A stretch of DNA of 64,000 bases from contig QPGO01000167.1 in NCBI GenBank assembly GCA_008632985.1, positions 1 to 64,000 on the forward strand, given 5' to 3'. The position numbers were made by a program, and so were the translations under genes. The notes under the pieces are model-generated. The model was given only the letters and a program-made list of their open reading frames with translations, was not told where the DNA came from and ran no database searches. Every line of letters starts with the position of its first letter. The first letter of the stretch is position 1. This document shows positions 25,775 to 56,190 of the stretch, piece after piece. The stretch is from Psammoneis japonica. Its lineage: Eukaryota.

Positions 25775-27433
25775 ATGAGCGGTGACGACTTGTATGAACA
25801 ATGCCTCCTTGAGGTTGACGACTCGAATGATGTACACGACTTGCTTCGTTGTGTCGCTCGAGCTACTACTACTACTCTGAATAATCCCGACGGAGTTCCG
25901 AATCAACAGGATCGATTCCTGGCTGAAACGGCTCTTGAGTTTGCCAGTTCCTTTCTCTTTGTAATTTTCGCCGCCATGGTCTTCATGATGCAGGGTGGCT
26001 TTGCCATGTTGTGTGCCGGTTGTGTCCGAAAGAAAAATGTCAGCAACAGCATGCTCAAGAATCTGTTGGATGCGTGTGGAGCGGCTGTCGCATACTTTAC
26101 CGTGGGATATGCCTTTGCGTTTGGAGGCACATCACCCGACTCGACCGACAAGACCTTTATTGGGAATGCCAACTTTTTTCTCATGGATGTGGATGATTAC
26201 GCCTTTTGGTTGTTTCAGTACACCTTCACGGCGGCTGCAACGACGATTGTGGCTGGGACGTTGGCGGAGAGGTGTACCATGGTTGCGTACCTCATGTATA
26301 GCATGTTATTGGCCGGCTTTGTCTACCCAGTTATTGTTCGGGCGTTTTGGAGTACCGAAGGGTTTCTTAGTCCCAATGCAAACGAGCCACTATGGGGAAC
26401 TGGAGTGATTGACTTTGCAGGATCTGGTGTGGTACATTTGACTGGAGGTATTACGGCGATCCTGGCAACGAGCATTCTTGGACCTCGTCAAGGTCGTTTC
26501 CATGATGAGGAAGGACGCCAGTTGGAAGTCCCAAATGAAATCAAGGGACACTCAGTCGCATTGCAGGTGAGTTAAGGAGCATACAGTACGGTATTTCTGT
26601 GATGAAATCGAATTCACTCATCCTGTATGATTCGTTCTTGTCCTTAGATTCTCGGTACATTTATGCTATGGTTTGGTTGGTACGGATTCAACGTCGGTTC
26701 TGCCTTGACCATGCCCAATACCGAGTCACTCGGTGCCGTGGGCGCCTTGGCCGGTGTCAACACGGCTCTTTCGGGCGGTGCCGGTGGCATGACGGCACTT
26801 TTTGTCAATCTCATTATATTGGAACGCCGCACCGGTGAACCAATCTTTGACTTGAAGTACGCCATGAATGGTGCACTCGCTGGACTCGTCGCTATTACCG
26901 GTGGATGTGGCGTAGTGGAACCATGGGCGGCCGTGTTGGTGGGCTTTATTGCAGGAATTTTATACATTTTTGGATCCTGGGCTCTCATCAAGATGCGTTT
27001 GGACGACGCGGTGGATGCTATCCCCGTCCATATGCTTAACGGATTATGGGGATTGGTTGCAGTCGGTTTCCTCGCGTCACCCTCAAGACTCGAAGATGCC
27101 TATGGTCGGTCCAAGCATGTCGGTTGGTGCTATTCGTGGGGTCGGGGAAGCAGCGACGCGACCCTGCTCGGTGCCCAACTAGTTGGTGCACTTTTCATTA
27201 TTGGATGGGTCACTGTAATCATGTTTCCGTTCTTCTTTTATTTGAATTGGAAGGGATGGTTTCGCTCGGACCCGCTCGAAGAGTTGGTTGGATTGGACAC
27301 GTCCTACCATGGTGGCTTGGCTCTACGTGGCGAGGACGTCAATCCAGAATACATTAGTGCCTTCAAGAAACAACGTGATGAACGCACTGAGCGTCGCATG
27401 AGTCGACGATCCATATCCAACGATGAGCTCTAA
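25775..27433 (+). CDS. AMT: Ammonium transporter, paralogue 2; exons 25775..26566, 26648..27433
   Basis: Same motifs and same intron position as 22273..24029. Confidence 0.95.
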
Positions 27434-31303: not shown

Positions 31304-34300
31304 CTATCTTCTCTTGCGCTTGCCATGGCGAACAACGGTTGACATTTGCTCCACCGCCGCTCGTCTATTCTTTTTGGTATAACTCTTGCCATCAAGAGGT
31401 ACATAGGCATATGGCTCGTACTTTTGATCCTTTCTCTTGACGTCACCACCAGCCTTTTTCGACTTGTAAGCCGCGCCCAGCGCTTTTGGTTCTTGTTTCT
31501 TCTTTTTCTTTTCGTCTCGCGCCGCCTTGGCGCTCTCGTACTTGCTCAAGCGTCGCTTTTTGCCACCAAATTTGATTTCGGCGTTTTCTTCCTGGTCCTC
31601 GTCGTCGTAATCACCCATGGCATTGTTGTCTTTGCTATCATCGTCATCATCAGGGACAACGAGACGTCCCTCGTCATCAAATTCCATGACACCTAGACTA
31701 TCATCATCGTCATCACTATCGGCATCTTGCTCAGCAAAATGAACGCTCTTTGCCATTTTAGGATCCAACATATCCATGACATCACCATCCTCTGTCTCGA
31801 CACGCAACTGCGCTTGCGGCAACTTCTTGGAAACAGAAGCTCTACTTCTTTTGGTAGACGTGGCGGCACTCTTGTCTCCCACAATTGTACCACCCCGGGT
31901 GGCAGCCGCACCCCGCAAGCTCCTGCCGGTTCGACCCGTCATGGCCGTAAAGCCCGTAGCACCCGTCATGAGGGTTCTGCCATCGTCCGAATCTTCCTCG
32001 TCGGATTCCATCATGTCATCGTATGCCACATCACCACCAACACCTCCGGTTTCTTTTCGTCGTTTGGCTCGTTCGTCCAATTTGCGCATGTGCGTCAACA
32101 ACCGGGCATTGTCGTCGGGAACAAGAGGCAAGAGTTTGTCGTAGCCAAAGGTTCTGACAAGCTTTTTGAGAATGATTTTAATCTTGGCACGGAACCGATC
32201 CTTGCCACGACCATACTTTAACATGCCCGTCATGAGTTCGGGCAAGAGCGGCTCGAGCTGTTGCGGTGTCATGGCGGCGACACTGACACGGACAAAGCCA
32301 ATGACGCTCTTGAGTACTTCACGACAATTCTCATCAAAGAGCACCAAAATGGTTTGCAACAGCGACGGGACGAGTGCTTGGACACGCATGTCGTTCCGGG
32401 CATACTCAAAGACCAAGCGAGAGGATGCCATGACGGCGGCCGATCTCATGTGGGGTGTTTCGGCACCGAGTGCGGCCAAAATGATTTTAAAGTACTCAAC
32501 AATGTCGTCGTCGTAAAGGGCAGCCATGGATATCAAGAGCTGATAGGCAGCTTCGCGCGTCTTGCCATTGGAATCCTTGAGACACAACAACACCTCACCG
32601 ACAATTTTGGATATGAGTGTCTAGCCAAAAGCAACGGGGGAATAGCACTGCGTAAGTCTATCGTACAGCTCAAAAACAATTACGCATAATATATACTTTG
32701 TTTCAACAATCTCACCTTGTGTTTTGGGTTGGAGTAATTCAAATTCTCCACAATACACGTAATACATTTGAGTCGCATATGCCGCGCCGAGATTTGGCAC
32801 GTCATGATGGAACCCGTCAAGAGTTCAATCATGCCATCCAAATGATCTTCCGACGTGACAAAGCTGGGATAGTGGACGCAAACCTCGGCCATGCACTTGT
32901 AGGCTCGCTTTTGGACACGAGCTTCCCATTCATCACTGCGACAGAGTGGTTTCAGTGTTCGGTACAAGAGAGCAACGGAATCATGGTGGAGCGATTCGGA
33001 AACCACCAGCGCTTGCGCCAATCCCAACAGCGTACAAATCTTTTCATCCTGGTTCGATTGGGTTGCCAGCAAGAGACGTTGCATAATTTTGGAAAAGAGT
33101 TTTTGAAGAAACTCTTTTGGTGCCAACCGCGCCAGAGCGGCAATGGCTTGGGTGACACTCTGGGCACGTTGGGAAACCAAAAACGACTGGTTCTTGTCTG
33201 CTGTAGTAGATGTTTCCATGGCATCGTCGTCGTTCGTCGCCTTGGTGCTTGTTCCGTGCAACGTCTCGACAAGTTTAAACAAGGCTGGCAACGTCTTGAC
33301 GGATACTTGCTGCATGACTGCCAGATCCTGTTCGTGATTTGATTCTTCTCCTCCTTCGATAGTATCTTGGCGGTCCAAGACACCCGAAACGAGCATCTTG
33401 AGTCCACCGCATATCGTTGTCTGTAGGGTGTATTGAATAAATTGCAAAAGATATAAGACAACACGATAACATTACAGCCCGACGACGACACATATTGTAT
33501 ACAACATATTATATACTCACAATGAGTTGAGGATATCGATTGTGATCTCCCAAGGCCTTGATGAAGGTTTGCGAAAGCGACGGCATGCACGTGGCCAAAT
33601 CGGGTGGAGAAGGTCCTTGACAAATCACTGGCAACAGCATCCACAAATCCACCACACGCGCCTTGTAATAATGCTGTTTTGACTTTTGTTGCGAGGACAG
33701 TACATCACAACGTCGGGCAAGTGGTAAAATTGTTTCCTGAAAGAATGCCAATGGCTGTGGCTGTTCAAAATGGCATTCTCGTAGTAACACCAAGATCCAA
33801 TCCTTTTTTTTGTTATTTGGTTTCCAATCCAACCAAGGCCAAGCGGTCGTTAAACCAATACCTTGAATCAACATTTTAAGACCGTCATCGACGTGCATAG
33901 AGGAGGACGAGTTGGACAGTAGGGATGTTCTCAAATCCACAAAACTCGTCGTGACGTGTTGGCACTGCGACGAGGATGATGCGTCATCCAAAAGAGAATA
34001 ATGCTGCAACACCATAATGACAAGTGGTGTCAACGTTACCGACCAAGTGGAACGGTACGAATGCAACAAAATGGGTCCGTGCATGTTCGTAATGCACGTT
34101 TCCAAACACTTGAGTCTTTCTTCTTGTAGACTATCCGTTCTTTTTTCAGCATTGCCAAGTGCAGTACTTCGCAACAAGAAAGTCAATTCCACCATGACAT
34201 CTTGTGCCACCACCGCCATGTCGTCATGTGAGTAGTTTTTCAAGAGAATCAAAATACGAGACAATGCCACGGGAAACAGCTTGTATCCAATTTGTTCTTG

Positions 34301-35494
34301 TTCTTGTTGTTGTGATTGCAACAATCGTGTACAAGACGTCAAGAGAATCTTGCTGTACAAGATTGTGGCTTCAGCAGAAGAAGAATCCTTCATCATCACG
34401 TTGTTATTGCTTTGCAACAAACTCGCCAAGACGGCATCATAGTTGGTACAATCGGAATGAGACACGCACGTATACAAGACTTGCAAAAGATGTGTACAAA
34501 GATGTGTGCGATACTCGTTTTGTTTCTTCTTGGTCGTTGCCGTCACGTCGACAAACATGGAATTATTGTTGTTATCGTTTTCTTGTTGTTGTTGCTGCAA
34601 CAAAAGCAGTTTGGTTACGGCCGTACCAAAGGCATTGACATCCAAATATGGGACAATTTGATTCAAGAATTGCAAATCGTGCAACACCTTGGCATTGTTG
34701 TCATTTTGATTGGTTTCGTCGTCGTCCAACAACAGTACGGCATTCGTGTAGTTCGAGACGGTTTGTTGAACAACTCGAGTCACAACAACGACATCATCTT
34801 GTTGCGGTTGTTGTTGCAATAGCACTACGACACATTCTTGTGCGTGCTTTCGTACCTTTGGTTTGACATCACGACACAAATGCAATAGCGTATATTGAAG
34901 CAAGTTTTGAACTTGTTGTTCTTCTTGTCGTTTAGAGAGTGATGATGATGATGATGTATTGAGTTTTTGCAACAAATCCATCGATACATCACAGACGGCA
35001 CGCAACGTGGCATTGGGACCAATCGTATTCTTGTTTTGTTGTTTTTGTTGTTTTTGTTTTTTCGTAGGACTACCAGAATGTTCCATCCCTTCCAGTGTTG
35101 CCATGATTTTGACAGTCGCCTTGCATAGACGTACCATCCAACCCATGGTCGTCCATAACGTTGGAATGGAAACGTAGGGAAGAACGTATTGCATCAAATC
35201 CAAAAACGCCACGAGCGTAGTACATGATATTTCGTCTTGTTCTTCTTGTTGTTTCACCAATGATCCTTCCATGGCGGCCAAGATATTGGTATACACGGTT
35301 GCAGCCAAGACTGCATCGTCTTCTTCTTCTTGATTATTATTTACCAGTAGCTCCTTCATGGCGGCTGCCACGGCACCGAGTCGCAACGAACGAGGATTGT
35401 TCTTTTTCTTCTTGGAGGATTCAATCAAATCATCAAGAACTTGAACAAAATTGTCGGAAGAATCATCATCATTATTGTGTTGATCCGTCCGCAT
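31304..35494 (-). CDS. RRP12: RRP12-like ribosome biogenesis protein (NUC173/HEAT); exons 35494..33521, 33420..32716, 32620..31304
   Basis: D.KPKVRK.AQ, LAFFQE.ILPLA, LW.LLP.IC..P.D, RVQKRAYK, EVLLCLKD.N.KTR, and C-terminal YKSKKAGGDVKR..KYEPYAYVPL. Both introns keep the frame. Confidence 0.9.
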
Positions 35495-37853
35495 GATGCT
35501 GTTGCAATGTTGATCTTGAGAGAGTAGTAGTAGTAACAAGTTGTGTTGCTTTATTTTTTCTCAACAGCAATCGACTTGTTCTTGTTGTTGGTCCTTTTTT
35601 TGTTTGTTTGTTTGCGATGAAGTGAGAGCCGACGAGTGGCTGTCAGGCATGACGGCTAGCGGACGGACATGATTTTCGAAAATTCAATCCAAAACCTTTT
35701 TGGGAATCTTTCTGGAAGGAACCATGTTCGGCGGCATTTAGGCTGACAACCCCAATCAAGCATCATCATGCTCTGTCGTCACAAAAGAGCCGAAAAATTT
35801 GTCAATGCAAGTGCCTTGGATTGAAAGCCAACCATTGCACTCTTTTGACCAACAAGGCGCCAGCGTCGCTGCTGTTTCCGGGCCAATGTGCAAACAGCAC
35901 TTGCGAGACTGTGTGACAAGCTCAGAACTGCTCGAGTTTGCCTGGCCATGTCATGGAAAAGATTCAGCCTCCACACCCTTTTTTGCTTTGCGCAAAGGGA
36001 AGCAGAGCAAGAACACACATCTGAGATCCACCAAGCTCCCCTTGCAAAACAACATGAAGGAGCTTTCTTTTCCTCCTCACATCCTGTGCAAACTCAGCTG
36101 CAAAGCATGCTTCATCTTTTGTGCTTCCTTGTGAGGTCTCACTTTGCAAGCAACAAGTGCATCAAAAGGGAGGGCTGCGTGTGCAGGTTGGCCAGTCAAT
36201 TGCACCCAATGTGACATTTTTAGAAATGTGCACTCACACACATTTAACTTCATGACTGAAGGTGGTGCAAATCTGTTTGAGACCAGATTTGAGATCCTCT
36301 CGCCGAGTGGACCGCCCCAACCTGAACTTTCAAATGGATTTGTGCCACCTTTGGTGATGGAGACATTTGATGTTCTTTTTTGTCGCAGTGTGAGATCATT
36401 GCAAGATTGCCATGATGTCACCAATGCAGCAGCAGCAACAGCGCGGTTTCTGCGCACAGGCAGCAAGAGCACCAATCTCATCACCGTTGGCTCCTCCATG
36501 TTTGACAGAGTTGGGACAAGGCTGAGACTGGCTGCAGCACTGCAAGTCTCATCACACAACTTTGCAAAATTTCATCTCCCAGTGCTGTGTTGTCCATGCT
36601 TGATTTACAATGCTCTTGGCAGCTTGTTGGCAACTTGCAGGTGCAGTCTGTCCTCTTGTTTAGAAGTGGCTGTCTCTGAACATGCATGCATTGCATTCTG
36701 CTGTTGACCTGAGCTTGTGATGCTGCCAAATCATTTCTTGTTTGCTTGCATTTTTGTGTGCCATCTGTCCAACAGCAGCAATGAGGACTGCTCTTGGGTC
36801 TCCATTTCAGTTCAAGACAAAAAAATTGCACCTGGTTTTGTCAAAATTCATCTTCCGGCACGTTTGGTCATTGCTTCCACCTGAAAGCCACAGCACCTCA
36901 CACATCTGGATTGGCGCCAACTTCATTTCAACACTTTCACCTCTTGCTTTTTTCTTGCATCTCCAACATGCTGCCATGGGTGGGTTGAGAGAATGTTGGG
37001 GATCGAGCTCGGGGCTGCATCATTTGGGTTCCTCCAGTGTGGGCCAGTGCATTGTTGCAACCTGACAACCATTTTTGGACATGCCAAAAAGCTTTTTGCA
37101 CACTGCTGCCTTCTTCTTCAAGTGTGGCAGCTGCAACCCAAGGAGGATTTGCCATTGAAGATTTCATTAAAAAATCTGGAGGCAGGGCAGAATGTCTTTG
37201 CAAGGATTGGCACAGAGGGCAAGTGTGCTGCATCTCAAATGCAAGCACTTTGTTGCCAGGCTGTTGGAGAATCCGTGCAAACTCAAAAAGGGGGGAACGT
37301 GTGGCATGAACAGATTCAATGCTGGCTGGTTTGTGGTGCTTGGATTTGTTGGCATGATCAAAAAGAAAAGTCAGCAACAGGGGAGACCACTGGTGTGAGC
37401 CAACTGGAAATGAGCACGTGGTGCAATGTGCAGCAACAAGTTCGTCAGCAGAAGCATTTGGCAAGATGTCATGCTCACTCACACCCCATGTGAGAAAAGG
37501 CTCTGTGGGCTTGAGAGAGCCTTGGAAGATGCCACACAATGGCGCGGCACACTCACATCTCACATCACATGATTTGCATTCATTGCCAATAAAAAAGGGA
37601 CAACATGTGCTGCTTGTTTTTTTAAAAGTTCACCTGCCACATCAATCTCAGTTTCTGAATGTGAAACATTGAAAATCAGGCGCGTTTGTCTCTCACAGTG
37701 CCTTGTTGCCATCATGCAGGATTGAATTTGCTTGATGCAAACATTAAAAACAGGCACTCTTTCATGCTGGTGGTGCAGATTTAAATGGCTTTATTCATTT
37801 CTGTTTGCATCATCTCATGTCCCACAGTGCTGTTTGTGGAAAGTGCCCCAGAG

Positions 37854-38129
37854 TGACAGAAATTGAAGGCAAATGGCAAGAATTCAAACAACAACTCCTT
37901 GCTGCTGTCTAAATGGCAGATGAGTCTCCGCTCAGAGACTGTTGCAGGAGCCGAAAGATGTGTGAGTCGGCACAATCGGGCCACTGTTGTCATTCTTGTG
38001 AGCCTTGTGGCTCGAAAGCAAACTGCATCGCGTGCGAACGCGCGGAACTGAAGCACACAAAACTGTGCGCGGCAAACTAAACAGCGCGCAACATTTTGCG
38101 CGCACCCAAATCCTGTTCAAATCCTGTCA
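37854..38129 (-). repeat. 3' LTR
   Basis: 276 bp, preceded on the minus strand by the purine tract GGGGAG (38130..38135). Confidence 0.95.
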
Positions 38130-41100
38130 CTCCCCAGTTTGCTTGAGGAGTCACAGAAACAGATTTGACTTCGGATGAAATGAAGTTCCAGAACATGAGG
38201 GGGCGGAGAAGGTCCCAGATTTGGGAGCAACCCCAATGCTTGCTGAGGATGTCAGCAGGGTTGCGGGAGCCTTTGATGAAGTGGAGCTCAAGGCAACCAG
38301 AGGCAATTGCCTCACGCACACGGTGGAACGACAGTGCGGTGTGTCGCTTGTGTAACTTGGAGTGCGGGATGGTGGCACTGTCTACAACCGACTTGTTGTC
38401 ACCGAACATGTAACTGACATTACGGATCGGGACGCCAAGGTGGTGCAGGGTGATGCGCAGGTCAACAATCTGCTCGACACAAGTCCTTGCGGCAACAAAT
38501 TCAGACCCACAGGTTGCAGTCTCCACGGTGGCTTGCTTCTTAGAGAACCAATCAGCCGGGAATTTGTTGAGGAAGTGGAGCATTCCCATGACAGAGCGTC
38601 CGGTGAGCATGCAATGGCACAAGTTTGCATCGATGCAGTGGGTGGCAGTGACGAACTTGCCAAGGGGCGGTGGAGCGTCCTTCGGGATCATCTCTTCTGC
38701 TTCGCCGTACACGGAATGCATCCATTCACAGGCCGGAGCAGGGAGATCCGAGTGGTCGGGCTCTTCCGTGCGAACGCGGAGAGCACCGTGTCGCATCTTG
38801 GAGAGGTGCCCACAGACGCGTTTGGCATGATCCAAGTGGCCTTGACGGGGCGCAGCTCGGAAGCTAGAGAGTGACATGACGGCCGTGGCAATGTCAATTC
38901 GACCAAGGGACACTGCCCATTGGAGTGAACCAACAAGAGACTGGAACTTGTGAATGCCATCGGGTCCCAGCAGTTCGGAAGTGTCCAGTTCGGGGTGGTC
39001 ACCCTTCTCCAGAGGTGACAGGGCGTTGGTGGTGGGTTTCTCCCCAAACAGTCGGGCGCAGCTGTCAACCATGCGCTCGATGTACTTGCGCGGAGACAGG
39101 CACAAGGTTCCGTCGGGATCCCGGGAAAAGTCGCAACCCAGATGGAACTCAATGGGTCCCGCACCCTTGAGCTTGAACTTGTGCTTTTCCGTGAGAGCAT
39201 CGACGAAAGATTGAGGGTCCTTCATGGCAATGGCGAGGTCATCCACATAAACGGCAATGCATTCATGGTGGTCGCCGTTCCTGCGCATCCAAATGTCGGG
39301 TTAGGCGCGGCAGGGGAAGAAGCCTTCAGCTCGCAGGCAGTCGGCGAAGCGCTCATGCCAGCGGAGACCGGAGCTGTGCAGTCCGCACAGGGCCTTGTGG
39401 ATGACAAGGATGTGTCCTTCGAGTTTGCCAAATTCGGGTCCGACTGCAATGTAAAGCTTCTCCTTGGTGGTGGCTTCAAGGCAGGCATTGCCAATGTCGG
39501 TGGCCCATGTCTCCAACTCGTTGAGTTCGGCCAGGAAAATCATCAGCCGAAGGCCACGGAGGGAGACCACTCCGGAGCAGACACTGTCGATGGGTACGTC
39601 CGTGAGGTGCCCGTCGGCTACGAGTCGTGCCTTGTGGCGACCGTCGTGTTTCACGTCGCACACCAGGTGCACTCGGATCTTCTTGTGTCCCGCAGGAGGA
39701 GTGGAAGACTCGAAGGGCCCGCAGTCATGGAAGACTTCATGTTCGTCGAGTTGGTCCATCTCGAGATTAGTTGCGTCTCCCCATTTGCGGTTGCCGTTGC
39801 ATTTGTCTGGTGACATGGCATGCTTGCAGTTCCGGGGAACTTCGCACCCGCATTTGCAGCGAGGTGCAGTGTGGAAGGAGCGAAGCTTGGCTTGGTTGGC
39901 CATGCGAAATGGCTTCTTTTGGCGCCTCGCGATGGTGCGGAACCGCTTCCAGCCATCCGTGTTGAGGAGTCCGTTCTCTCATGCATAGATGGCGCAGGTG
40001 ACGGGGTCGTCCTTGGCGATGATGGCAAGAGGCTCGGACGTGATCTCCCCACTTTCCCATTCAAGCATGATGTTGTAGCTTGAGCCTTTCCAGGTTGGGT
40101 CGTGAGGCTTCAGAGGTCCTTCGTGTGACACGATGCGTCGAAATTTCCAAATGGTGGTGTCTTCGTCTTCTTGCTCAATGTGATTCATGATGTCATTGCA
40201 GGCAAGGACTTCCTCGCATTCGTCGTTGTTGACAGAGCAGACGAACTTGGTGAGCTCGGGATTGCCGTTCACTTTCCATTTGTGGTCTTCGACGGCCTTG
40301 ACGATGCGAGCTCTGTGGCGTTGTCCGTCCTCTTGTGGCTGCATGAGGAAGGTGCGTCCAATGATGTCTTGTGGATCGAAAACTGGCATCTTGGGTGTCC
40401 TGATCTCCCCATCAGGAGAATCGACGGGGTTGTCATCATGGCGAGATTTGATGTTGGGTTCAGGCAGGAAGGTGCGTCCAATGATGTCTTGCGGATCAAA
40501 AACTGGCATCTTGGGTGTCCTGATCTCCCCATCAGGAGAATCGACGGGGTTGTCGTCATGGCGAGATTTGATGATGGGTTCAGGTGGCTCCCCATCAGGA
40601 GGATCAAGACGTGGGTTTCGAACGGCAGGATCGGTGGTGGCGGAGCGGACGTTGGACCGGCAGAGGATCTTCTGGGTCTCGTCAGAGAGAATCTTGAAGG
40701 TCATCTGGTGGCCGACGTGCTCAGCAATGCCAACGAAGCGTCCACGCAACTCACGGGATTCGGACGGCCAATCGGAGTCATCGAGGTGGAAGTGCATGGG
40801 TTCCCACCAGTGAAAGCGAAGCAATGGGCTGATGTCCGGGGTGGAGCCAGTGAGAGTCTCGAGGGGCGTGCGCCAGTGGAGACGTGGGGACGCTGCATGG
40901 TTGAGTGTGAAGCACACACACATGAGCGCCAGCAGCCATGTGTGGGCGGGCGAACCAAAACGATCCATGACAGTGTTCGCCATGCGCTTCACGGTCTGGC
41001 ATCGACGCTTGGCACAGTTTTGGTGTTGCTGGTGAGGCTCACTTTGCCAGCTGGAGATGAAGAGGGCCCGCAGGATCCCGAGCACTTTGTTGCTGATCTC

Positions 41101-43866
41101 AACTTGAGCACGGTCGCCAATGAGTTTGGATGGGGTGCCACGCTCACGGATCTGATCCTCGAGTGTGTTGACAAACTCTTTGTCCGTCTTGGTGCTGCAG
41201 ACGTCAGCGACGGTAGACTCGGTGCCAACAAACAGTTGGGCACTGGTGCAACCAGAGTCGACGGCCGGGGTGTCGGCACAAACGGTGTCAGTGGCGACAG
41301 GCTCGTTGCGGCGGTGCACATTAAGGGTGGGGTTGGGTGATTTGCAGGCCTTCCTAAGGTGTGCACCGGCGGGCATGCGGGCGCACTGCATGGTGCAGTC
41401 AAAAGTGCGACGGACCACATCGGCAGGCAGGAAGCCAAAGTGAGGCCGAAGAGACTCGAAGGGCGGGTCCTTGGGCTGTACAGTGCACTCCGGGGGTGGG
41501 ACGTCATCGTCCTTGGGGTCAATTGCGTGTAGATGACACTCGCAGAACACGTTGTCGTCCGGAATGAGGTGATCATTGAGGGCGGACGCGTGATCGGCAG
41601 ACAAGGAAGCAGACATGATGGTCTCGTTGACAATGACACGATGACGGCAGTTGCCGCATTCGTCAAACAGGTTGGCAGTGGGATCGTCCTGCAGGTCAGA
41701 GATCGCGTCGCACCACTGGTCGTCGTCAGCGACAGAGTGATCGAGGATGGAAGGATCCCATGTGCCATCACCGGTGAGGATGACATGGGGCAGGGTGTCC
41801 CATTCGGCGTCAGTGCAAGGTCGCATGGCAACACAAGGCAGGCCGGCCTTGATGTCAATGGGGATGACACAGCCATCAGGAGTGGCAACACGTTGCAAGC
41901 CGTTGGGCACCTTGACAGAGCGATCGTTGACATCCTGTTTGTGCCATTCGAGCTGGCCGCAGGAATGGATGGTCTTGCCCTTTCCCGTGCATGCGCACTG
42001 ATGGAGGATGGCGATGACGGGACCACGCTGGGTCTCAATGACGGCACCAGCGGTGACAATGGGGATGTCCACCATTTGATGGTCGTCAATGCCCTGAACG
42101 TCAACTTGGCGAGAGGTGCGTGCAATGACGTGAACGTCGTCGCCAGCAATGCCACCGTTGGCCCCACGATCGACTGGAGTGCCAGTGCGTGTGGAGCGAT
42201 GAGCAGAGGCAGAGCAAATGACATTGTGGTTGTTGATGCGGCGGCAAGTGCGGCCGTTAAGTTCCATGTCATCGGCAGAAGCTGGCGGGGTAGAGGGGGC
42301 GACGGATGGCCCCGGTCGACTGGCATTGGGGGCTTGGTTAGGAGACAACAGATGGTGCAGATCACCGGGTGGCAGTGGCTTGCGCTTGGTGAGGTGCACC
42401 AGGATGGGATCATCCGAAGTGGCACCCACATTTGGAGCGGAGTCACCAGAGTCAGCAGGAGTCGTGTTGGACAAGTTGACATCACCGTCACTCCCAAGGC
42501 GTTGGTCGTGAAGGTTGGCCGTAACGGACTCATGGCAGTTGCTGTCTCGCGGGTTGCGGGGAGGCGGACGAGAATGCTCAAGGATGATCGCCTTGGAGGA
42601 ATGGGGCAATGAATCCCAAATCCGTTGGTGGTCGGGAGGGAGACGTTTCCATTGGTCACCGGCGAGGCTGGGACCACGGGTGTGGGCAGCATTGGCCTGA
42701 AGGACGTCAATGTCACTGTCAATGTCACAGAACACATCGTCGGACGGTTCCTCGGAGCAGACGTCGTGTGCGCACATGGCGCGGCGGGGAGCTCGAGGTG
42801 TTGTCTTGGGTTGAAACGCACTGTCGCATTGGGCTGCTGCGGAGAGGAGCAAGCCACAGCATTGATCGCATGTGAGGCTCTTGCCACTCTGCGTACGATG
42901 CTGATCAGCTTGGCTCTTGACAGCATGGAGTTCCTCGACAGGGTGCACGGCATTCTCGAGCATGACGCGCTTCTGTCCTTCAGAGAAGTGGTCACTGGCC
43001 GGGATGAGTGCCTCGCACTTGCGCAACTGGTCTTGCCAATGAAGGATGAACCCGTGGGTCGGACCTTTCCAAGTGCCATCACCAAGACGTGCGGTGGCAA
43101 GGTACGTCAGCAGGGTGGAGGACTCGACAGATGCGCGGGTGGAGGCGAGCGCGCACTCAGACAAGGCGCGGCAGATGGTCTGTGCATCAGAAGACCCCAC
43201 ATTTTCGCGGATGAGAGCCTTGCCCTTGTCGGTGAGAAGGATGCGTTCGAAGACGGCGAACACGCACTTTTGCTGTTCAGCAAAGAGCAGTTTGTCTTCG
43301 GGGCTGGTCGGTTTGTACGACGAGTCTAGAATGCACTCGACGTCTTGGGCACGGGCTTGTGCCACAAGTGAGGTGTGCCAAGTGTGCCACTGCTTGTCAG
43401 ATTTGAGAGCCGTGAAAGCGGTGGGATCACGCTTGATGCCTCGCTTGAAGTCCCGCACCGGGTCGCGTGCCTTGGTCGGGTTGGTGACATGCGGAGGTGC
43501 GAGGGGTGAGCTGCCAATGGACACAGAAGACATGCAGTCGGGGCTGAGGCGGCAGGCAAGGAACTCGTCATGCGTGAACAACGAGAAGTCATTGGCAACG
43601 TCAAGACCTTTGTGTGCTTTGACAATGTACAGACTGGCTAGAGCTGCTGACATGTTCTCACAACCACGGGGCAAAGGGATCACATTAGTGCCGTTGTCGC
43701 ACTCAAGCGAGTCGATTTGGGATGGTGTGAATGCGAATGGTTCTTGATGCGAGTCCGTGCCATCTTGTGCCAAAGCCAAACTGAGAGGGCTCCAAGCACC
43801 TTGGGCAAGCACGGTTCCAACAACATGCTCGAAACCATCGGTTTGTTGCTGACGAGTGAGAACCAT
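38077..43866 (-). pseudogene. gag-pol polyprotein, one frame with two premature stops (39979..39981, 39301..39303)
   Basis: Protease VDRGANGG; integrase TDTV..D, DRAQ, QSEPHQQHQN; RT HKARLVA, YVDDL; RNase H DANL, SEFVA, GDNKSV, NPADILSK. The three track ORFs share one frame. Confidence 0.93.
40346..40585. repeat. 120-bp in-frame tandem duplication in the IN-RT linker
   Basis: IKSRHDDNPVDSPDGEIRTPKMPVFDPQDIIGRTFL occurs twice. Confidence 0.92.
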
Positions 43867-44789
43867 GGTGGACAAAAGTGGTGTCAGGACAAGCAATTCT
43901 TGTTGGGAAGCGAAGGCAGACTTGAAGCTTGGGTGAGAGCAGACTTGACTTGAAACAGACTTGACTTGAAATCTTGAACTGTCTTGAAATCAGAAGTCGC
44001 CGGGCTTTGCTGTCCCGTTCGTTGTCAAGTGCCAAACTTCCCATCCGGTCCGCAGAATTGTGCCGGCACGTCCGAACCCGCAGCCAGCGGCGCTTTGGGT
44101 TGCTTGCGAGCAGAGCAGCGGGTTGTAAACCCCTGCAGGTGAGCTGACCAGAGGTGGACAAGACCCCCGAACCGTTCTTGTTTTATGTCGGTTGGATTTC
44201 CCGATCAGGCTGGCCAGTTGACGCAGGCGTTGGGCGCTGTGGACGAACGAACAAACGCGGGGAAAGCACCCTCGCCCCAACGTGGGCTGCAATCACGGCT
44301 GCTTGCTCTCACAGTCGTCCTCGTGGACCTGGCAGAACTGCAGAGCACCAGCAGTCCGGGGTAGATCAGGTGCAATGGACTCGGTGTGCTTGTAGAGTGG
44401 CAGCAAAACCGCAGTCCGAAGAGTGGGTGCAGGTTCTTGGCCGTGAAGACATGCACACATGCACATGTCTTCAGCGACGAAGATCCTTGAACATGTGGGG
44501 TTCTTGACCGTTGACCGATGAGCAGGTGCATCAAGGGATGAGGATCAAGGACAGACTTGGACATGACCGTTGAATGCATGTCTTCAGTGACCAAAGGCAG
44601 CACAATCAATCCAGATGTCCAGCGGCAAGGAGACTTGACGGTGACGTTAACTTCCTGCCGATGCCCTGGCATTGAATGTGCGCAGACTTGCCCGTGCATG
44701 TAGAACACATGCGGAGGTCCACGCAGAATTGAAGTGGCATCGTTGGTAAATCAACGACGACGATGGCGGTTGCTCAATGGGTTGACAAT

Positions 44790-44806
44790 GAGCAAGACTG
44801 TTAATC
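44790..44806 (-). promoter_or_regulatory. Putative primer-binding site
   Basis: GATTAACAGTC directly abuts the 5' LTR. Its complement GACTGTTAATC resembles a tRNA-Asn(GTT) anticodon arm. Confidence 0.6.
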
Positions 44807-45082
44807 TGACAGAAATTGAAGGCAAATGGCAAGAATTCAAACAACAACTCCTCACTGCTGTCTAAATGGCAGATGAGTCTCCGCTCAGAGACCGTTGCAG
44901 GAGCCGAAAGACGTGTGAGTCGGTACAATCGGGCTACTGTCATCATTCTTGTGAGCCTTGTGGCTCGAAAGCAAACTACATCGCGCGCGAACGCGCGGAA
45001 CTGAAGCACACAAAACTGTGCGCGGTAAACTAAACAGCGCGCGACATTTCGCGCGCACCTAAATCCTGTTCAAATCCTGTCA
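44807..45082 (-). repeat. 5' LTR
   Basis: 276 bp, colinear with the 3' LTR without indels. Confidence 0.95.
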
Positions 45083-46959
45083 CAGAGCATGACCTGGCAT
45101 GCTGGTGGTCCTGGCAACAGGAGCCAATCCTCAAAATGTCATTGCAGGGTGTTTTTGGTGCAAGCAACCAGTCAACCTGCCCTCTGTGCAGTTTCCACAG
45201 GTTCAAAAACAAAGAGAATGTCAGCAAGGTCATGACTGTGAAGGCCAAGATGATGATGAGTGTTGGCACACAGATGAGTGCACAGGAGGGAGGGGTGAGA
45301 CAGATGGGGAGGAGGAGGTTGACAATTTAGAGGCTGTCACCCCCATCCCAGTCAAATTACAACCTTCCTGACTTCCATGTTTCCAAGGAAGAAATTCTTG
45401 TTTGTTTGTTGGAGCTGGTGCAGTTGAACACTGCAAACAGCCAGTTGCCTTCTGACACACACAGATGGTGTGAAGTGGCAAGGCAAAGACTTGCAGATTC
45501 AGAATGAATTGTTGGAGACCAGGGGGGTGGCATTGGAAGGATGCTCCAAATGCTGCAAAACCTGATCACAGAGACAATGATCAATTGAAATGGCAAGTGC
45601 CTCTGTCTTTTTTTTAGTTGGCGTCATTCTGAGATTGTGGTGGCATCTTGACCTGCGGATCTCGACTTTTTCCAAGAACAACCGGACAACTGCGCACTGC
45701 ACAAACACAAATCGACAATTCGCAAAACATTGCAGACTGCAAAAGAAACACATGAATGCTCACAAACAAAATGCAGTCACTGCTGAAATGACAATTGTTG
45801 CTGGGTGTGAACTCTGCTTTGTGCCGCCACAAAAGGTGCCACTGTAGAGTCCGCCTTGACTGTCGTCAGGTGATGCACAACAGACCGATGCATTGCAATT
45901 GTGCTCTCCAGTGTGACCAAATTGGCCGCTTCTTCTTCTTCTCAATGAGACACTTGATGTTGCAAAAGAATGAGTGCAGATGTCATCTGTCCAGTCAATG
46001 GAACAGTCTGACGTGGCGGAACATGAAACTTTTCCAGTTGAGCTGCCATCTTCAAGAACAATTTCAACAGATCTCGAATCGCATTTTCTGGCACACTCTA
46101 AGAGGGTGCTGCCAACGGCCTCCCCACAGCAGATGAGGTCACCCTCCATTGGTTCTCCAGCCGGTGGATCTTCCAATTCATTCCACATTTTCGAAAAACA
46201 ATGAGGCAAGGCAAGTTTGTGAAGCTGTGTGCGATTCAAGCAGCTCATCTGCGGTGCTTGTCAAGCATGTGATGAACAACAATGCAAGAGGAGATGCGTC
46301 ACACGACTTGCCTCACCGCAGCTTTTTTCAAGCTCACAAGTGATCTGGTCGGATTGTTGCAAGCTGCAAAACAAGTCTCCCTGGTGTTCACCATGCTGCC
46401 GCAACAATTTGCAGTGACGCCACATCCAATTGGCTCATGTGTGTTGGCATCAAATGGACCAAGCAGGTGAACATGGCCTTTGTTCACTTGGGTGTGATGG
46501 CAAACATCTCCTGGAAAGGTCACCATGTTGCCAGCCACCTTTGCCACTTGCTCAAAATCTTTCTGGCTGGCTGATGCAGAACAGCCTCAGCTTCTTTGAC
46601 ACTGCCACGCACTTTTGGATGTGATGCATGCTGTTGTTGAATTGTGTCGACTTCTCTGTTTTCACAGCCACAATTGCATTAAAAAAACCTTTGCTTTTGT
46701 TGACTCAGGTTGACATGCTGTGCAGTGTGCAGTGCTGCACCCGACACAGCTTGCCATGTCATGCAAGAAACCCTCCCCAGATGTTGGGAGATGATCTTGT
46801 GCGGCGCAACTGGTGGGAAAATTCACTTGCCATGCAAAAGGCCAAAGCAGAAGACCACAACATGTGAGCAATGAAATGTGTGAAGCAACTGACATTTTCA
46901 ACATGCCTGTCCATTGCAGCGACTCTGTTGAGAGACAAGCGACCCCACAATGAAACCCT

Positions 46960-47615
46960 TGTTAAAGCAAATTGCACTGTGCAGTGCGTTTTGAATTCCT
47001 TGACAAGTTTTTCAATTGCCTCCAGAGACATTGCATCTTGATTGATCTCTTGAGAGATGTCAGGCTGTGAAAGAACCATGCAAGCACCACAAATGTGCCA
47101 TTGAGCACGTTGAGAAAACTTGCAGATTCTCTTGGTGGCAAGCACATTGGCGCAGACAATGACTCTCGCACCCCCTCTTCTTGTTCTTCTACCAACAAGG
47201 TTCCTTCCATGGTGGTCAAGACATTGGCACACACAGTTGCAGCCAAGACTGCATCTTCTTCTTGATTTACCAACAGCTCCTTCATGGCAGCTGCCACGGC
47301 ACCGAGTCGCAATGAACAAGGATTGTTCTTTTTGTTCTTGGAGGATTCAATCAAATCATCAAAAACTTGAGAAAAAAAACTGTCGGAAGAATCACCATCA
47401 TTGTGTGGATCCACCCACATGCTGTTTTTGTCACTGACAGCTTTGGTGACAACTTGTGTGCCGCACAATGGAGAGTCTTAATTTGGCACAATTGACAGAG
47501 TGTCAGTTTGTTTCTCAACAGCAAATGTGAAATGGTTTTGTTGGTCTTCATTTTTTTGTTGCGAGAGCACCAACAAGTGGCTGTCAGAAATGGTGGATGG
47601 CTGACTGACATGATC
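46960..47615 (-). pseudogene. Decayed duplicate of the RRP12 5' end and upstream region
   Basis: DDLIESSK.KKNNP.SLRLGAVAAAMKELLVN..EEDAVLAATV matches ~35230-35495. Upstream motifs match ~35555-35672. Confidence 0.9.
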
Positions 47616-49786
47616 ATCAAAATTTCAGTGCAAACCTGTGGGTCCAGAGGACATGTTGCGGCAGGCCCCACATTTGTCAGGTGGTTTGAAACAACAACAC
47701 AACATGAAACAGTGCACACTGTGCATCCTTTGGGGAGCATTGGCCACTGTCTCTCATTGAGTCTCCGATCTGCACCAAAAGTTCTTTTGTTGCTCATCAA
47801 AGAAGACAGAGGTGGGAAGGAATTCCCACAGAAAACAACAGCAAGATGACAAGTCAGTCGACCTCCCCCACCTCCTTCTCCTTGGGGCAGGAGTGTTGAA
47901 AGAGTTGCTTCAAAGCACTCAAGCAGCAAGAGCAGATGAAGCAGTTGCACCTTGTGAGACTGGTCGTGTCTTTCAACAACAAACCAAAGGGCAGCAAGCT
48001 GGGGACTGGGGACAAAAAAAAGCTGCAAACACCCAAATGAGACTGAACTTCATCTCACATCTGTCTTGGTGGTGTTTCTGGATGAGAACACTGCAAACAA
48101 CTTCATTGCAGATGTTCACAGCCATGTTGCCAGCCAAATCACCTGGTGCGGCTCTTTTCAACAAAAAAGACTGCTGTGCTTTGACAGATCCCTTTGGTCC
48201 AAAACATCTTGTCCTTGAAACCCACTGCAAGCACAGCGAACAAGACAGGGAGAGGCGCCACTCAACTCACCTGTTTGGGGTGTTGAGTTGCATTCCATTG
48301 ATGCCTCCTCTGTCATGTCATTCTGCACTTTCAATGACACTGTGTGCAAACATCAGAAAATTGAGGAGCGCAATGCATGTTTGCTCAATGCATGCCCAAG
48401 GGCGCACATGTTTTCCCAAAGGCAAAATGTCACGGCACTTCTTGCGAATGGTTGGACAAAGAAAAATTCAACCACAGGCTTGCTCTGAGGAGTGGAGATG
48501 GCCACCAGCAAGTCAACGGCACAGGCAAGGGGGGCAAGGTGAGAAGGCAAAGACACATCCCATGGTCTTGTTGTTTGTCAGCTGACTGGCATGACCCCAA
48601 CTCAGCTCAATGGTGCTGGCTTTCAAAAGATCGATGTCCGTCTCTGGCACACTGGTGTGAAAAATGTTGCTGAAGTCTGGCAGCCTGTTCCACCCAACCA
48701 CACAACACTGCACAGTGAGGGTGAGCTTTGCTGCTTCAATGTTGTTTTCTCTTCTGTGAAACACAGCAAGAAAGAAAATTGCTCTTTTGGACACATGGGA
48801 CAAATCAACAAAGTCAGCAGCCATGCATGAAGTCATGCAGTGTTTGCTGCACTGATGACTTTTTGAGCAAAAAGGAAAATGCCCCACATGCTTTTGTTCC
48901 ATGCTGTGCAGCACACAAGTTGCCCATGTGCTGGCATCATTTGTGCCACTTGTTGTTGTTTTGGCTGTGCATTTTCAGAGGCAGGTTGTGGGCACATTTT
49001 GCCTCTTCAACCTGATGGGGCAGCAGCACCCTGCTGCAACAACAACAGGCCCTCCCCAAGCTCTGCATTATTTCCTGTCACAACAAAGTGCCAAATGGGG
49101 TTGATGTGCATGACTGATGGATGGTGGCTGCAGCAGCATCAGGGTCGGGTCATGTGCGGCAACCTCCCACAACAAGGGAGGTCTGTGGGTGTGGTGGCAG
49201 TGCCCCGCATGCCAAAGAAAGAGATGTGGTGAGACACTGAACAGGCCTCAAGATTGACTTTTGGGGACCATCACATGGTGTTTTGAAAAAAAAAAAAAAT
49301 TGATTGGTGCAGCAGTGCCCAGTTGTTGGGGCTTGGCCCTCTGTCGTGCTTCACTGCTTGTGGTTGGCCGGCTGTGCATTCTGTGCCTGGCCAGCATGGC
49401 CCTGGCTTGCCAGAGAGCACTCTTAACCCTGGCATTGCTGGCTCCAGCATGCCACGCTGTTCAGAGCTTGAAACCTCCAGAGCACTGGAGTGTTGGCATT
49501 GTGCGAATGAGGTTGTGGGCAGCAATCCAATCTCTCTCTCTGAAAGGTTAAATGCAACCACTGAGATTGTGTCTAAAAGGTGCAACTAAAAAATGCCATT
49601 CCCAACATTCTGCTTGAAGCAGACAGTCAGTTGTGATCATTTTCTTCGCACCCTTCTGTGCAGTGTGTGACAAATCTGCGCATGCACAACTGCTAGATTC
49701 TCTACATAAGACTCTCCACATGTCACAATCATGGCAGTAGATGTCAGATTGTGTTACCGGTATCTAGAGCTCAACTACCCAGAGGT

Positions 49787-51020
49787 CTAGATTTTATCAT
49801 GTCGTCTTTTGTGACTTTCAACCCACTGAAAGAGGTCGGGCTTCTCTCGAATCATTGCAAACATCAAACTTGGGTCACAATTAATGTCTTGTTTTCGTAA
49901 GATGTGCGGCCACAAGGCGGTTGGCACAGATGTGTCTACCACATGTTGACGGCCGGCACGATTTAGCAAGCAGTAGAAAGAAATCTGCCGTATCATCATC
50001 TTTTCTGGCACACTACGCAGAAAAGCACGCCGAAAAGCACACCGGAAATCGAGCCGAGTGATGGTTCGGTTGTGATCTCTCACTGCCTCCAACAAGGCAG
50101 AGATACCTCTCTCACCAATGGGGTTGTAACTCAGATCTAACCAGTCCAGGCCTTTGTTTTTCTTGAGTCCCTGTGCAAGAGCCACCGCACCCTCGTCCGT
50201 GATGCCACAATCACAGAGAATCACACATTTGAGCGGCGCCCCCGACGATGCAACCAACAGCTCGCTGAGGGCCAAAGCACTTGTGACATCGATGCCATTC
50301 AAATTCAAACACAAGGTTTCCACGCTGGAGTTGTGCTTCAGCCCTTCAAAAAGCGAGCACACACTCCTGGTGTCCTCAAGTCCTCTGAGAGTCAGACTTG
50401 TGAGTGATGTGTTAGTTTGCAATGCCCTGCTCAATGACTGCCACCCTTGGAAGCTGGCACCAATGCCGTCAGGTGAACGGCATTCAAAGCTTGTCAACCG
50501 AAAGAAAGGGTTTGCCAAGAGCTCATTCGAAATGATGGTAAGCCCTTCATCTTCAATGCAGCATCCCCGCAGATAAAGCTTCTTCAGATTGCATGTTGCT
50601 TCCCCAACGTTGCTCCTGGACAGCCCCCGAGCCAGCTCCATTGCCCCCTCCTTTCCAATGACATTATGATCAAAGAGGAGTATTTCCACATTTTGCAGGT
50701 TAGATGCAATGGCACGCACCCCTCGCCAACTCATGCCACATGTTTCCTGAAATTGTAAAAATTCGACAAGCCGGGGGTTTGGAAACGAATTTCGTTGCAT
50801 CAGAGCCAGGCCCAACGCTTCGGCAGCGGCATCACCATCGTTATCATACTGTACCGCCACAAGGGTTGGATCATTTTCAGCAATTCGGTTACAAATATTG
50901 ACTAGATACGGCGACAGGTTCTGATGAAGTTGCGCAATCCGAATTCGAAGGGAACGCCGCGGCTGCTCGGAGCTCGAGTTGACAGAGATTGGGAACTCTT
51001 CTCTGTTTCCTCGTGCTGTC
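49787..51020 (-). CDS. RI-type (NLRC3-like) LRR protein, last exon; first exon not located
   Basis: The frame is open from an AG acceptor at 51021-51022 through RIAENDPTL and the LRR repeats to TAG. Paralogue of 13889..14796. Confidence 0.75.
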
Positions 51021-55124: not shown

Positions 55125-55329
55125 TACTTCGTCGTCAATAGCTCAAAGAGGATCACGACGCTAGATCTAATGCAATCATTGTTCATTGCGTCGTCAATGT
55201 ACTTGTAATGACAAACTCTGTCTGCTAAAGTCTTAAAGAAGCCAACTGAAGACAGACGAATACCTACTAGAAGAAAAGCTACGCCATAACGACCAACGAC
55301 GCAACTTGCAACTTGCGGCGCAAGCAACA

Positions 55330-56190
55330 AAATAAAACGCCCTGTCTGTCTCTCTGTTTGTTTGTCTGTTTGCCATGTTGACAGTTGCGAAGGTTCTCTC
55401 CAACCTTCCATCTCGCAGGGGAAGGGCGGCCACAAAGTTGCCACCAACACTTGGCTGTTGAGCCATCAGGAGCAAACAGGATGCAAATGCCAAATGGACA
55501 CAAGGAGTGATCCATCAATCACAGACTGGCCCCTTCTTTTTTTCTCCAACAGGGTTGGTGTGTGTGCTGCAAGGCTTGTGTTCTCGCCCCTTCTCTTCTT
55601 CCAGCGTCAAAGACACCTTGGTTGTGGGCAGGTTTTTGTGAGAAAAGGTTTTTGCTGTCTGCCAAGTTTTTGCTTGCAGGCATTTTACAATTTGTGAGAT
55701 GTTGTGAGCATTGGCCCTGGCTCCTCTCCAAAGTTCTCATTTGTTTGGCCATTTCTCGCACACACGCACCCCCCGCTGCTTCGCTCCTGGCATCACTGGC
55801 CCATTTTTGCATTTGACACAATGGGCTCTTTCAAAATCGGGTTTTTCCCAAATCGAAGGGTGAGTGCACACAAAACTCTAATTTTTGAAATGATCAAATT
55901 TGAAAGAGTTCAACGCGCCAAATTGCACAGAAAATCAGCCTCTCGAGTGATTGGTTTCTCATCAGGGGAGAGGGCGGGGGGGCAGTTGGTGTTTTTGTGC
56001 TCTTTAATTGTTGGGGAGGCCCATCTTGTGGCAACCTCATGTGTCCAATGTGTGCTTGCATGTGCCACATGCCAAATGGATGAGACACAGGACACAGATG
56101 AGTGCTCTCTGCTCTGGAGCCTGCGGCAGCCGGCAGCCACCGGGGCGGGGGGAGCACTGACCACCGACTCCAGTCATTTCTTCTCCGCTT
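55330..56190. other. Small TpA-depleted block 5 between divergent genes
   Basis: Same bias with sharp edges. Probably a decayed repeat. Confidence 0.7.

Follow-up and report, generated by a model that had tools for sequence, protein, structure and literature searches.

A Polymorphic Ty1/copia Retrotransposon in a Diatom Contig Bears a Transition Signature That Removes TpA Faster Than CpG

The Element and Its Relatives

The first 64,000 nucleotides of contig QPGO01000167.1 from Psammoneis japonica (assembly GCA_008632985.1; this whole stretch is called the window here) contain a 7,229-bp Ty1/copia retrotransposon of the long terminal repeat (LTR) type, and the way in which this element and the DNA around it have mutated is the subject of the present account. 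The element lies on the minus strand at 37854–45082 and is flanked on both sides by a perfect 5-bp target-site duplication, CAGAG, read directly from the letters at 37849–37853 and 45083–45087. Target-site duplications of 5 bp are the usual length for copia elements. Its LTRs, located by repeat comparison and by reading the letters, have TG...CA ends; in the orientation of the element, the 5′ LTR occupies 44807–45082 and the 3′ LTR, which is 276 nt long and the more mutated of the pair, occupies 37854–38129 (both minus strand). The 3′ LTR is abutted by a purine-rich run in the letters at 38130–38140 (minus strand) that, from its position, may act as a polypurine tract.

A single polyprotein frame of 1929 codons spans 38077–43866 on the minus strand, beginning with an ATG at 43866 and ending with a stop (38077–38079) that lies within the 3′ LTR. 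Three minus-strand open reading frames (ORFs) share this frame, namely 39979–43896 (1305 aa), 39301–39903, and 38077–39288, and are separated by the in-frame stops TGA at 39979–39981 and TAA at 39301–39303. When the stops are read through, residues 1391–1602 (39061–39696, minus strand) match the copia-type reverse transcriptase family RVT_2 (PF07727) with an E-value of 1.9e-24 and 87.1 bits, against a cut-off of 31.6; the corresponding scores in two intact relatives are 104–109 bits, and the two halves of the domain are found separately when the ORFs are scanned one by one. Pfam models for integrase, protease, and gag gave no match in the query or in the two intact relatives, even at E-values up to 1. 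The gene order of the approximately 1,390 residues upstream of the reverse transcriptase, which can be aligned with the relatives, is thus assigned by collinearity only. Within the polyprotein, a 120-nt tandem duplication at 40346–40584 (minus strand; 2.0 copies, 96% matches) repeats 40 residues.

A protein search returned 966 proteins at E ≤ 0.001 among 7,871 candidates, and the 120 listed matches were used as the set of relatives. They are 1,695–2,068 aa long and 45–58% identical to the query, which covers 88–100% of most of them. This end-to-end alignment with polyproteins of 1,700–2,070 aa, together with the RVT_2 match, bears out the copia-type assignment made in an earlier sequence-only reading of the locus. 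The named relatives of the part comprising reverse transcriptase and RNase H come from the diatom Cylindrotheca, and those found for an ammonium transporter that the host encodes in the window belong to the diatoms Nitzschia, Seminavis, and Trieres. The LTRs, the RVT_2 domain, the collinear relatives, and the diatom names therefore identify a Ty1/copia LTR retrotransposon in a diatom genome. It resembles the Ty1/copia elements of diatoms, whose CoDi lineages are those of Maumus et al. (2009; PMC2806351), in its TG...CA LTRs, 5-bp duplication, single long polyprotein with RVT_2 near the C-terminal third, and diatom relatives. As an element, it simply adds one more ordinary member to the copia elements of diatoms.

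Dinucleotide Spectrum and Recoding of Tyrosine

Across 38077–43896, only 33 TA dinucleotides are left (observed/expected ratio, O/E, 0.12) alongside 399 CG (O/E 0.86), with TG at 1.33 and CA at 1.61. The window outside the depleted blocks described below has a TA O/E of 0.56 and a CG O/E of 0.97, and GC content is 0.57 in the element vs. 0.48 in the background. As a baseline, 80 metagenome loci of relatives gave median O/E values of 0.68 for TA and 0.80 for CG. At the former value, the polyprotein would be expected to contain approximately 179 TA, and it retains 32, an estimated loss of 82%. The survival of many CpGs where TpA is nearly gone, noticed from the letters alone, is thus confirmed by the ratios.

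Every tyrosine codon contains TA; a change of TA to TG therefore yields Cys, and a change of TA to CA yields His. Among the 1929 residues of the read-through polyprotein are 10 Tyr, 71 Cys, and 93 His. Its Tyr content of 0.52% compares with a mean of 3.84% (SD 0.32, minimum 2.86%) in the 120 listed relatives (z −10), and its Cys content of 3.68% with a mean of 0.92% and a maximum of 1.28% (z +17). His, Pro, and Ala are raised as well; loss of TA also turns CTA and GTA codons into Pro and Ala codons, and loss of CG turns Arg CGN codons into His. The sequence-only reading had given the 1305-aa ORF just 5 Tyr, which is the exact count. It had also quoted seven copia motifs in which Cys or His replaces the usual Tyr; all seven occur in the translation, but they are located in the two downstream ORFs that encode the reverse transcriptase and RNase H part, outside the 1305-aa ORF.

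To place these changes at homologous positions, the query was aligned with 60 relatives, the first in the list of 120, and columns with at least 80% Tyr were treated as Tyr columns. At the 41 conserved Tyr columns the query has Cys 24 times, His 7 times, Phe 3 times, and Tyr 7 times, and at the other conserved columns it keeps the shared residue in 661 of 734 cases (90%). Conversely, of the 71 Cys residues of the query, 34 occupy positions held by Tyr in the relatives, and only 7 coincide with a Cys there. Cys and His are thus not what active relatives have at the Tyr columns. The replacement of conserved Tyr by Cys or His, suspected from the motifs, has therefore taken place, and it has done so through TA>TG and TA>CA.

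The direction and contexts of the underlying process are established by the complete set of differences. Among 63 single-transition replacements at conserved columns, 57 convert TA or CG into TG or CA (TA>TG 32, TA>CA 9, CG>CA 14, CG>TG 2), leaving 6 other transitions; a further 22 replacements require a transversion, and for another 22 a single step is not enough. Adenine in other contexts is nearly untouched (AA>AG 2, GA>GG 1, CA>CG 1). Within the 120-nt tandem duplication, five of the six differences between the copies are likewise between TA/CG and TG/CA. Counted per site, TpA is lost several times faster than CpG: TA has been lost by transition in 31 of 41 conserved Tyr codons (76%) and CG in 5 of 54 conserved Arg CGN codons (9%; Fisher p 2e-11).

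The two in-frame stops differ in origin. At the column of the first (TGA), 29 of the 60 relatives carry Arg and another 29 carry Lys; the proposed CGA>TGA change is accordingly plausible, though unproven. The second corresponds to a column with Glu in 60 of 60 relatives and arose as GAA>TAA, a transversion lying outside the signature. The frame had been described as otherwise intact, and it is indeed one frame with two stops, but its integrity shows neither youth nor selection. Loss of TA destroys TAA and TAG, and the process itself makes stops only via CGA>TGA; long frames are thus a by-product. The protein products predicted from this sequence are probably dead.

One might ask whether selection has instead stripped an active family of TA, perhaps because a nuclease or sensor recognises UpA, with Cys and His tolerated in place of Tyr. 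The long frame and the retained Tyr of the YVDD motif are what such selection would leave. Selection would hardly tolerate two in-frame stops, or the loss of 34 of 41 conserved Tyr, most of which are kept by 60 of 60 relatives. Moreover, Tyr-poor copies pick Cys or His differently at the same site, and the same kind of TA loss is seen in the non-coding LTRs and in junk blocks of the window. Once TAA and TAG are gone, long frames arise without any selection, and 47 stretches of at least 110 aa in those blocks have no Pfam match. On these points, selection for TA avoidance was rejected as extremely improbable.

The LTR Pair as a Record of Change After Insertion

The two LTRs of a retrotransposon are copied from one template and are hence identical at integration. 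Here, 263 of 277 aligned bases are identical (95%). Each of the 14 that differ is a transition exchanging TA/CG with TG/CA, and none falls outside these contexts. The copy at 37854 contains 2 TA and 17 CG, and the copy at 44807 contains 7 TA and 22 CG. At 10 sites, the former has TG or CA where the latter keeps TA (5 sites) or CG (5 sites); the 37854 LTR has thus lost 5 of the 7 TA and 5 of the 22 CG kept by the other (Fisher p 0.03). In the LTRs as in the codons, TpA loss exceeds CpG decay, as the sequence-only reading had suspected. At two further sites, one copy reads TG and the other CA, which indicates hits on opposite strands. Since every difference between these once identical copies lies at such a site, the process works on DNA that has already been inserted. 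In addition, the load gained in place by the LTR is close to that of the interior, so the element may have been largely intact on landing.

These observations bear directly on the idea that the RNA or cDNA of the element is deaminated before integration, by an ADAR-like A-to-I deaminase or another nucleic-acid deaminase, much as APOBEC-type enzymes hypermutate retroviruses, such that copies are dead on arrival. ADARs prefer U 5′ of the edited A, and editing of this kind would account both for so many changes in an insertion that has not become fixed (see below) and for a sense-strand bias in the changes (TA>TG 32 vs. TA>CA 9; Tyr>Cys 24 vs. Tyr>His 7). LTRs reaching the genome by this route should arrive identical, yet they differ at 14 sites of exactly this kind. 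Furthermore, 22% of the TA changes are T>C on the sense strand, and A outside TA is barely touched, as the counts above show. Fragments of host genes and blocks that lack a retroelement signature have been changed symmetrically (TG 1.78, CA 1.81), and ADARs are an animal family. Editing before integration was rejected on these grounds as a decidedly improbable source of the signature.

Insertion Age and Sister Copies

Read contigs from four runs of one sample were compared with positions 36000–47000. In one read contig of 2,132 nt, 37848 is followed directly by 45083; the contig passes over 7,234 bases and shares 5 letters at the joint, in keeping with the target-site duplication. A contig across the empty site means that an allele without the element exists and that the insertion is still polymorphic. 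Together with the perfect 5-bp duplication, it supports the young age that had been attributed to the insertion. The same contig carries one extra T at 45607 and another at 46350, as well as 14 other differences over 45083–47000, which may be allelic or small assembly errors.

The family to which the element belongs is clearly very abundant. Run X1 alone had 12,505 contigs placed on the region, and summed read-contig depth, which is not a copy number, reaches 55,000–200,000 in the element vs. 56–129 in the flanks. Compared with the other copies in run X1, the window copy shows 309 transitions and 28 transversions. Sequence contexts were available for the 40 places listed of the 361 that differ. 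At 22 of these, the window has TG or CA where the other copies, mostly nearly all of them, have CG; at 8, the window has TG or CA where 20–90% of the other copies have TA; at 6, the window keeps TA or CG and the others have TG or CA; and 4 fall outside these contexts. At three adjacent-pair sites, the window has CA where the others have TG, or the reverse. Such opposite and copy-specific outcomes imply that the copies were hit independently and that the process is still running.

The sister copies also allow for a different history, in which the decay was largely inherited: the family would have been amplified by trans-mobilisation from a TA-poor master, and change in place would be mostly CpG decay. 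This history leaves room for a TpA process, albeit one of greater age and lower speed than a young, freshly mutated insertion implies. The roughly 20 CpG changes private to the window stand at about 100%, whereas the TA-type differences are partial, at 0.2–0.9 (among the 40 best-supported places), and the huge depth of the family relative to its flanks fits a burst from one source. On the other hand, one LTR lost 5 of its 7 TA after integration, near the 82% estimated for the interior. The copies also differ in the TA sites that they keep, in both directions, and show TG vs. CA at the same site; and, once 76% of its conserved Tyr had been replaced, the polyprotein would probably not have driven a burst alone. 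We therefore regard inherited decay as an unlikely explanation, although one that deserves to be carried along.

A trivial origin was also considered, namely that modified bases in silenced DNA (5-methylcytosine at CpG, or modified T or A at TpA) were systematically miscalled by the sequencing chemistry behind the assembly. The pattern is located exactly where base modification would be expected, and the two single-T differences between the window and the read contig, at 45607 and 46350, resemble errors of long-read assembly. Nevertheless, the sample's read contigs match the depleted flanks without one difference over 403, 513, and 186 nt; the recoding recurs outside this sample and family, in one metagenome contig and three proteins of different origin; miscalls would not give TG in one LTR and CA in the other at a shared site; and functional genes beside the blocks read normally. 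A base-calling artefact was rejected on these points and seems very improbable.

Depleted Blocks and Decayed Copies of Host Genes

The element is not the only depleted DNA in the window. Six other blocks, 16,671 bp in total, have O/E values of 0.05 for TA, 0.29 for CG, 1.78 for TG, and 1.81 for CA; they alternate with normal genes, and the element sits inside one of them. Saturated blocks lie at 1601–4300 (TA 0.03, CG 0.37), 7701–10900 (TA 0.04, CG 0.21), and 17201–20400 (TA 0.04, CG 0.30). The older block that hosts the element consists of a left half at 35601–37853 (TA ~0.06, CG 0.34) and a right half at 45083–49500 (TA 0.04, CG 0.25), and a short depleted block occupies 55301–56200 (TA 0.09, CG 0.43).

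To find relatives masked by transitions, the window was recoded to purine/pyrimidine and compared with itself. The segment 47175–47640 proved to be a decayed copy of the 5′ end of an RRP12-like gene at 35240–35700 (ORF 33509–35539) plus DNA upstream of it. The duplicate lies approximately 11.9 kb away in the same orientation, and only this distal copy has decayed, with TA falling from 14 to 3 and CG from 20 to 6. Similarly, 9247–9919, within the block at 7701–10900, is a fully decayed copy of the leucine-rich repeat (LRR) genes at 13875–14920 and 49663–50713. When the two pairs of clear polarity, 35240/47175 and 9788/14721, are summed, the gene has TA or CG and the copy TG or CA 30 times, and the reverse holds twice. 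The saturation of unrelated blocks and of host gene fragments means that the process is not confined to the copia element; it is regional and apparently genome-wide, acting on integrated DNA and also on non-transposon DNA in the neighbouring blocks.

The blocks otherwise gave few clues to their content. They contain 47 stop-free stretches of at least 110 aa, in several frames and on both strands, none of which matched a Pfam family at E-values up to 0.01. A tblastn search with 6 intact relatives for other copia relics in the window returned 6 segments, none of which lay beyond the element. When the blocks were coded as purine/pyrimidine and compared among themselves and to the element, no similarity exceeded that of shuffled controls (maxima 85–100 bits), except for an inverted repeat in the first block and a marginal 116-bit palindrome. 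Two kinds of repeated DNA in the window lack the signature. A 129-nt unit is repeated 8.8 times with 92% matches at 60299–61439, inside an 840-aa minus-strand ORF (59491–62013) without a Pfam family, and two functional ammonium transporter paralogues differ by a mixed spectrum of 86 transitions and 66 transversions. The undepleted array and the ordinary spectrum of the paralogues indicate that homology alone does not trigger the process.

Flank Preference

The dinucleotides that remain are not a random sample. In the element, 3 of 49 surviving TA lie within ATAN/NTAT, compared with 49% in TA-normal relatives (p 2e-10), and in the saturated blocks 32 of 48 surviving TA are YTAA/TTAR, compared with 11% in the background. 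Thus, ATA/TAT is lost first and YTAA persists longest. For CpG in the blocks, survival is best in GCGC and worst where A or T flanks the site. A flank preference of this sort points to an enzyme or a defined lesion rather than to general decay.

Occurrence in Other Families and Data Sets

Among the 120 relatives listed from a separate search with the reverse transcriptase/RNase H ORF, mean Tyr content is 4.63%, and three proteins are Tyr-poor and rich in Cys and His: P0195 with 0.24% Tyr, P0217 with 0.91%, and P0219 with 2.25%. They are approximately 63% identical to the query and represent other copia families. Where the window and P0195 can be compared at Tyr columns, the choice between Cys and His is the same once and different four times.

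A comparable case was found at one of the 80 metagenome loci. This 2,766-nt contig (L018) has a TA O/E of 0.00–0.10 throughout, a CG O/E of 0.15–0.60, a Tyr content of 0.27%, and no stop in 368 matched codons. Two further loci (L024 and L054) are partly TA-depleted. Several of the 80 loci combine a CG O/E of 0.13–0.3 with a TA O/E of 0.4–0.6; CpG depletion with normal TpA is therefore common. With one locus in 80 free of TA, the TpA process appears to be rare, host-specific, and recurrent.

Interpretation

Taken together, these data probably describe a recently integrated copy of an abundant diatom copia family that has been struck, as DNA, by a transition process converting TpA and CpG into TpG and CpA. 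Several points weigh against this reading and have to be set beside it. The first is the sense-strand bias. The excess of Tyr>Cys (24) over Tyr>His (7) is significant (p 0.003), and Arg>His occurs 5 times with Arg>Cys/Trp/stop at 0; no such bias would be predicted if double-stranded DNA were hit in a purely symmetric way, and it could come from a step at the RNA or cDNA stage or from transcription-coupled repair. Changes relative to the sister copies are symmetric, and P0219 shows Tyr>His only. A simple rule based on the 3′ neighbour was tried for the Tyr>Cys excess and did not fit.

The second point concerns timing. Among the 40 places with known context, those at which nearly all other copies differ comprise about 20 CpG and only one or two TA, and much of the TA loss of the window copy may be shared with the family and predate the insertion. 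The runs come from one sample, which is possibly the source from which the window was assembled, and so lend no independent support to its sequence. The third point concerns the target. Any aim at repeats or heterochromatin rests on one 64-kb window and on read depth; the six older blocks are mutually unrelated in the window and, where read contigs were compared, single-copy by depth, and the 1.1-kb array of 129-nt repeats is undepleted (TA 0.38, CG 1.02). For these older blocks, "repeat-induced" would be a conjectural label. Finally, the mechanism of the TpA half is itself conjectural.

With these points in mind, a mechanism in two halves can be sketched for the transition process. Its target is probably chromatin that is silenced or repeated rather than the genome at large, as in repeat-induced point mutation (RIP) of fungi or in methylation-driven decay. 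Diatom transposons are CpG-methylated, and the CpG half is probably deamination of 5-methylcytosine. The TpA half is more speculative. Because T>C cannot be a deamination, the lesion would have to be either deamination of adenine, in DNA and on either strand, or mispairing of a modified thymine resembling 5-hydroxymethyluracil; oxidised thymine mispairs with G. The broader proposal, that some diatoms possess a mutator directed by chromatin or by repeats that turns A:T into G:C at TpA with flank selectivity (ATA/TAT first, YTAA spared) and adds C>T at CpG, is put forward tentatively, as something we would not yet bet on.

Comparison with Known Systems

RIP, known from Neurospora and other ascomycetes, offers the closest analogy. 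Both phenomena are dense, restricted to transitions, and dinucleotide-specific, and strike transposon copies as well as duplicated gene fragments; both act at the DNA level, far faster than background, and spare adjacent genes. The changes themselves differ. RIP changes C to T at CpA, creates TpA, and enriches for AT, whereas here TpA is destroyed, with A:T>G:C at TpA and C>T at CpG, and GC content rises. The hallmark of RIP is a rise in TpA with a fall in CpA and TpG; here, TpA stands at 0.05–0.12 and TG/CA at 1.3–1.9. C>T at CpG is seen in the high-copy element and in gene-fragment copies; the older blocks are single-copy now, and the tandem array escapes. Many diatoms possess DNMT4, which is related to the RIP enzyme RID and has no known function (PMC9998398).

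Methylation-driven decay of CpG shares with the present signature the change of CG to TG or CA and the resulting excess of TG and CA (blocks: CG 0.21–0.37, TG/CA 1.8), and 22 of the 40 places with known context are window-specific changes of this type. It leaves TpA alone, whereas here TpA is lost faster than CpG. The CpG half of the signature is thus ordinary, and the TpA half goes beyond methylation-driven decay.

A modified thymine at transposons has a precedent in dinoflagellates, in which 5-hydroxymethyluracil made by TET/JBP enzymes on repeats silences transposons, as stated by Li et al. (2024; PMC11572971). Older work cited there indicates that 5-hydroxymethyluracil prefers the dinucleotides TA and TC (PMC11572971). 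This is a transposon-directed thymine modification in an alga of the stramenopile, alveolate, and Rhizaria (SAR) group, but an epigenetic mark and not a mutational outcome (Li et al., 2024).

Hypermutation by APOBEC3 (G>A) or ADAR (A>G) likewise leaves retroelement copies full of one transition class in a preferred context. These enzymes act before integration and on one strand, leaving identical LTRs; here the LTRs differ, and both strands as well as non-retroelement DNA have been hit. All repeat or retroelement mutators known to us (RIP, the TCG type of basidiomycetes, and APOBEC) deaminate cytosine and push DNA toward A:T, and we know of no 5-hydroxymethyluracil-type base in diatoms. The present signature is the opposite, destroying TpA and pushing DNA toward G:C.

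Full-text searches found no earlier account of diatom transposons that lose TpA, mutate in a RIP-like way, or have their Tyr recoded, with most subscription journals and all supplements outside their scope. Term look-ups in the text of PMC2806351 turned up no mention of a mutational signature in diatom CoDi elements, and similar look-ups in PMC8147415 and bioRxiv 10.1101/2025.10.24.684338 gave nothing on the wider topic.

Implications for Genome Defence and Annotation

If the process is as we describe it, it would be the first natural one resembling genome defence to have an AT-to-GC polarity, and transposons would be killed by erasure of their Tyr codons while their reading frames stay open. 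If it is enzymatic, it would point to a natural enzyme that works in chromosomal DNA, either deaminating adenine or modifying thymine at TpA (in the manner of 5-hydroxymethyluracil, made by TET/JBP), which would be of interest for both genome defence and base editing. The RID-like DNMT4, TET/JBP, and deaminase genes of diatoms would thereby gain a concrete, testable phenotype.

Several practical consequences concern annotation. Dating by LTR divergence fails in such genomes, as illustrated by the 5% divergence in a still-polymorphic insertion, none of it outside TA/CG. Junk DNA that is free of TA lacks TAA and TAG and is full of long open frames, such that gene finders will over-call it. Finally, Tyr-less, Cys-rich ghost polyproteins are to be expected in metagenome protein searches, in which three were found here among 120 listed matches.

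Other Features of the Window

A number of side observations concern the depleted blocks and their borders. The inverted repeat in the block at 1601–4300 measures 245 nt (1779–2024 and 2900–3143), with arms approximately 875 nt apart that are 94% identical (97% as purine/pyrimidine), and may represent a foldback element or the termini of a DNA transposon. A tandem duplication of 0.95 kb (10527–11485 and 11495–12436), 96.6% identical, lies where a saturated block ends. Its copies differ by 23 transitions, of which 16 exchange TA/CG with TG/CA, and 13 of these 16 have TG or CA in the block-side copy, as if the process faded across the block boundary. The two LRR_6 genes at 13875–14920 and 49663–50713 lie in opposite orientation and are 79.5% identical; the latter borders a saturated block and contains 26 TA vs. 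44 in the former.

Other frames inside the copia element hold ORFs of 703, 389, and 359 aa. Elsewhere in the window, three copies of the ammonium transporter gene, approximately 80% identical, are found at 22144–24029, 25709–27433, and 62579–63993; two are in tandem and one is inverted, their substitution spectrum is ordinary, and each is split into two ORFs, probably by an intron.

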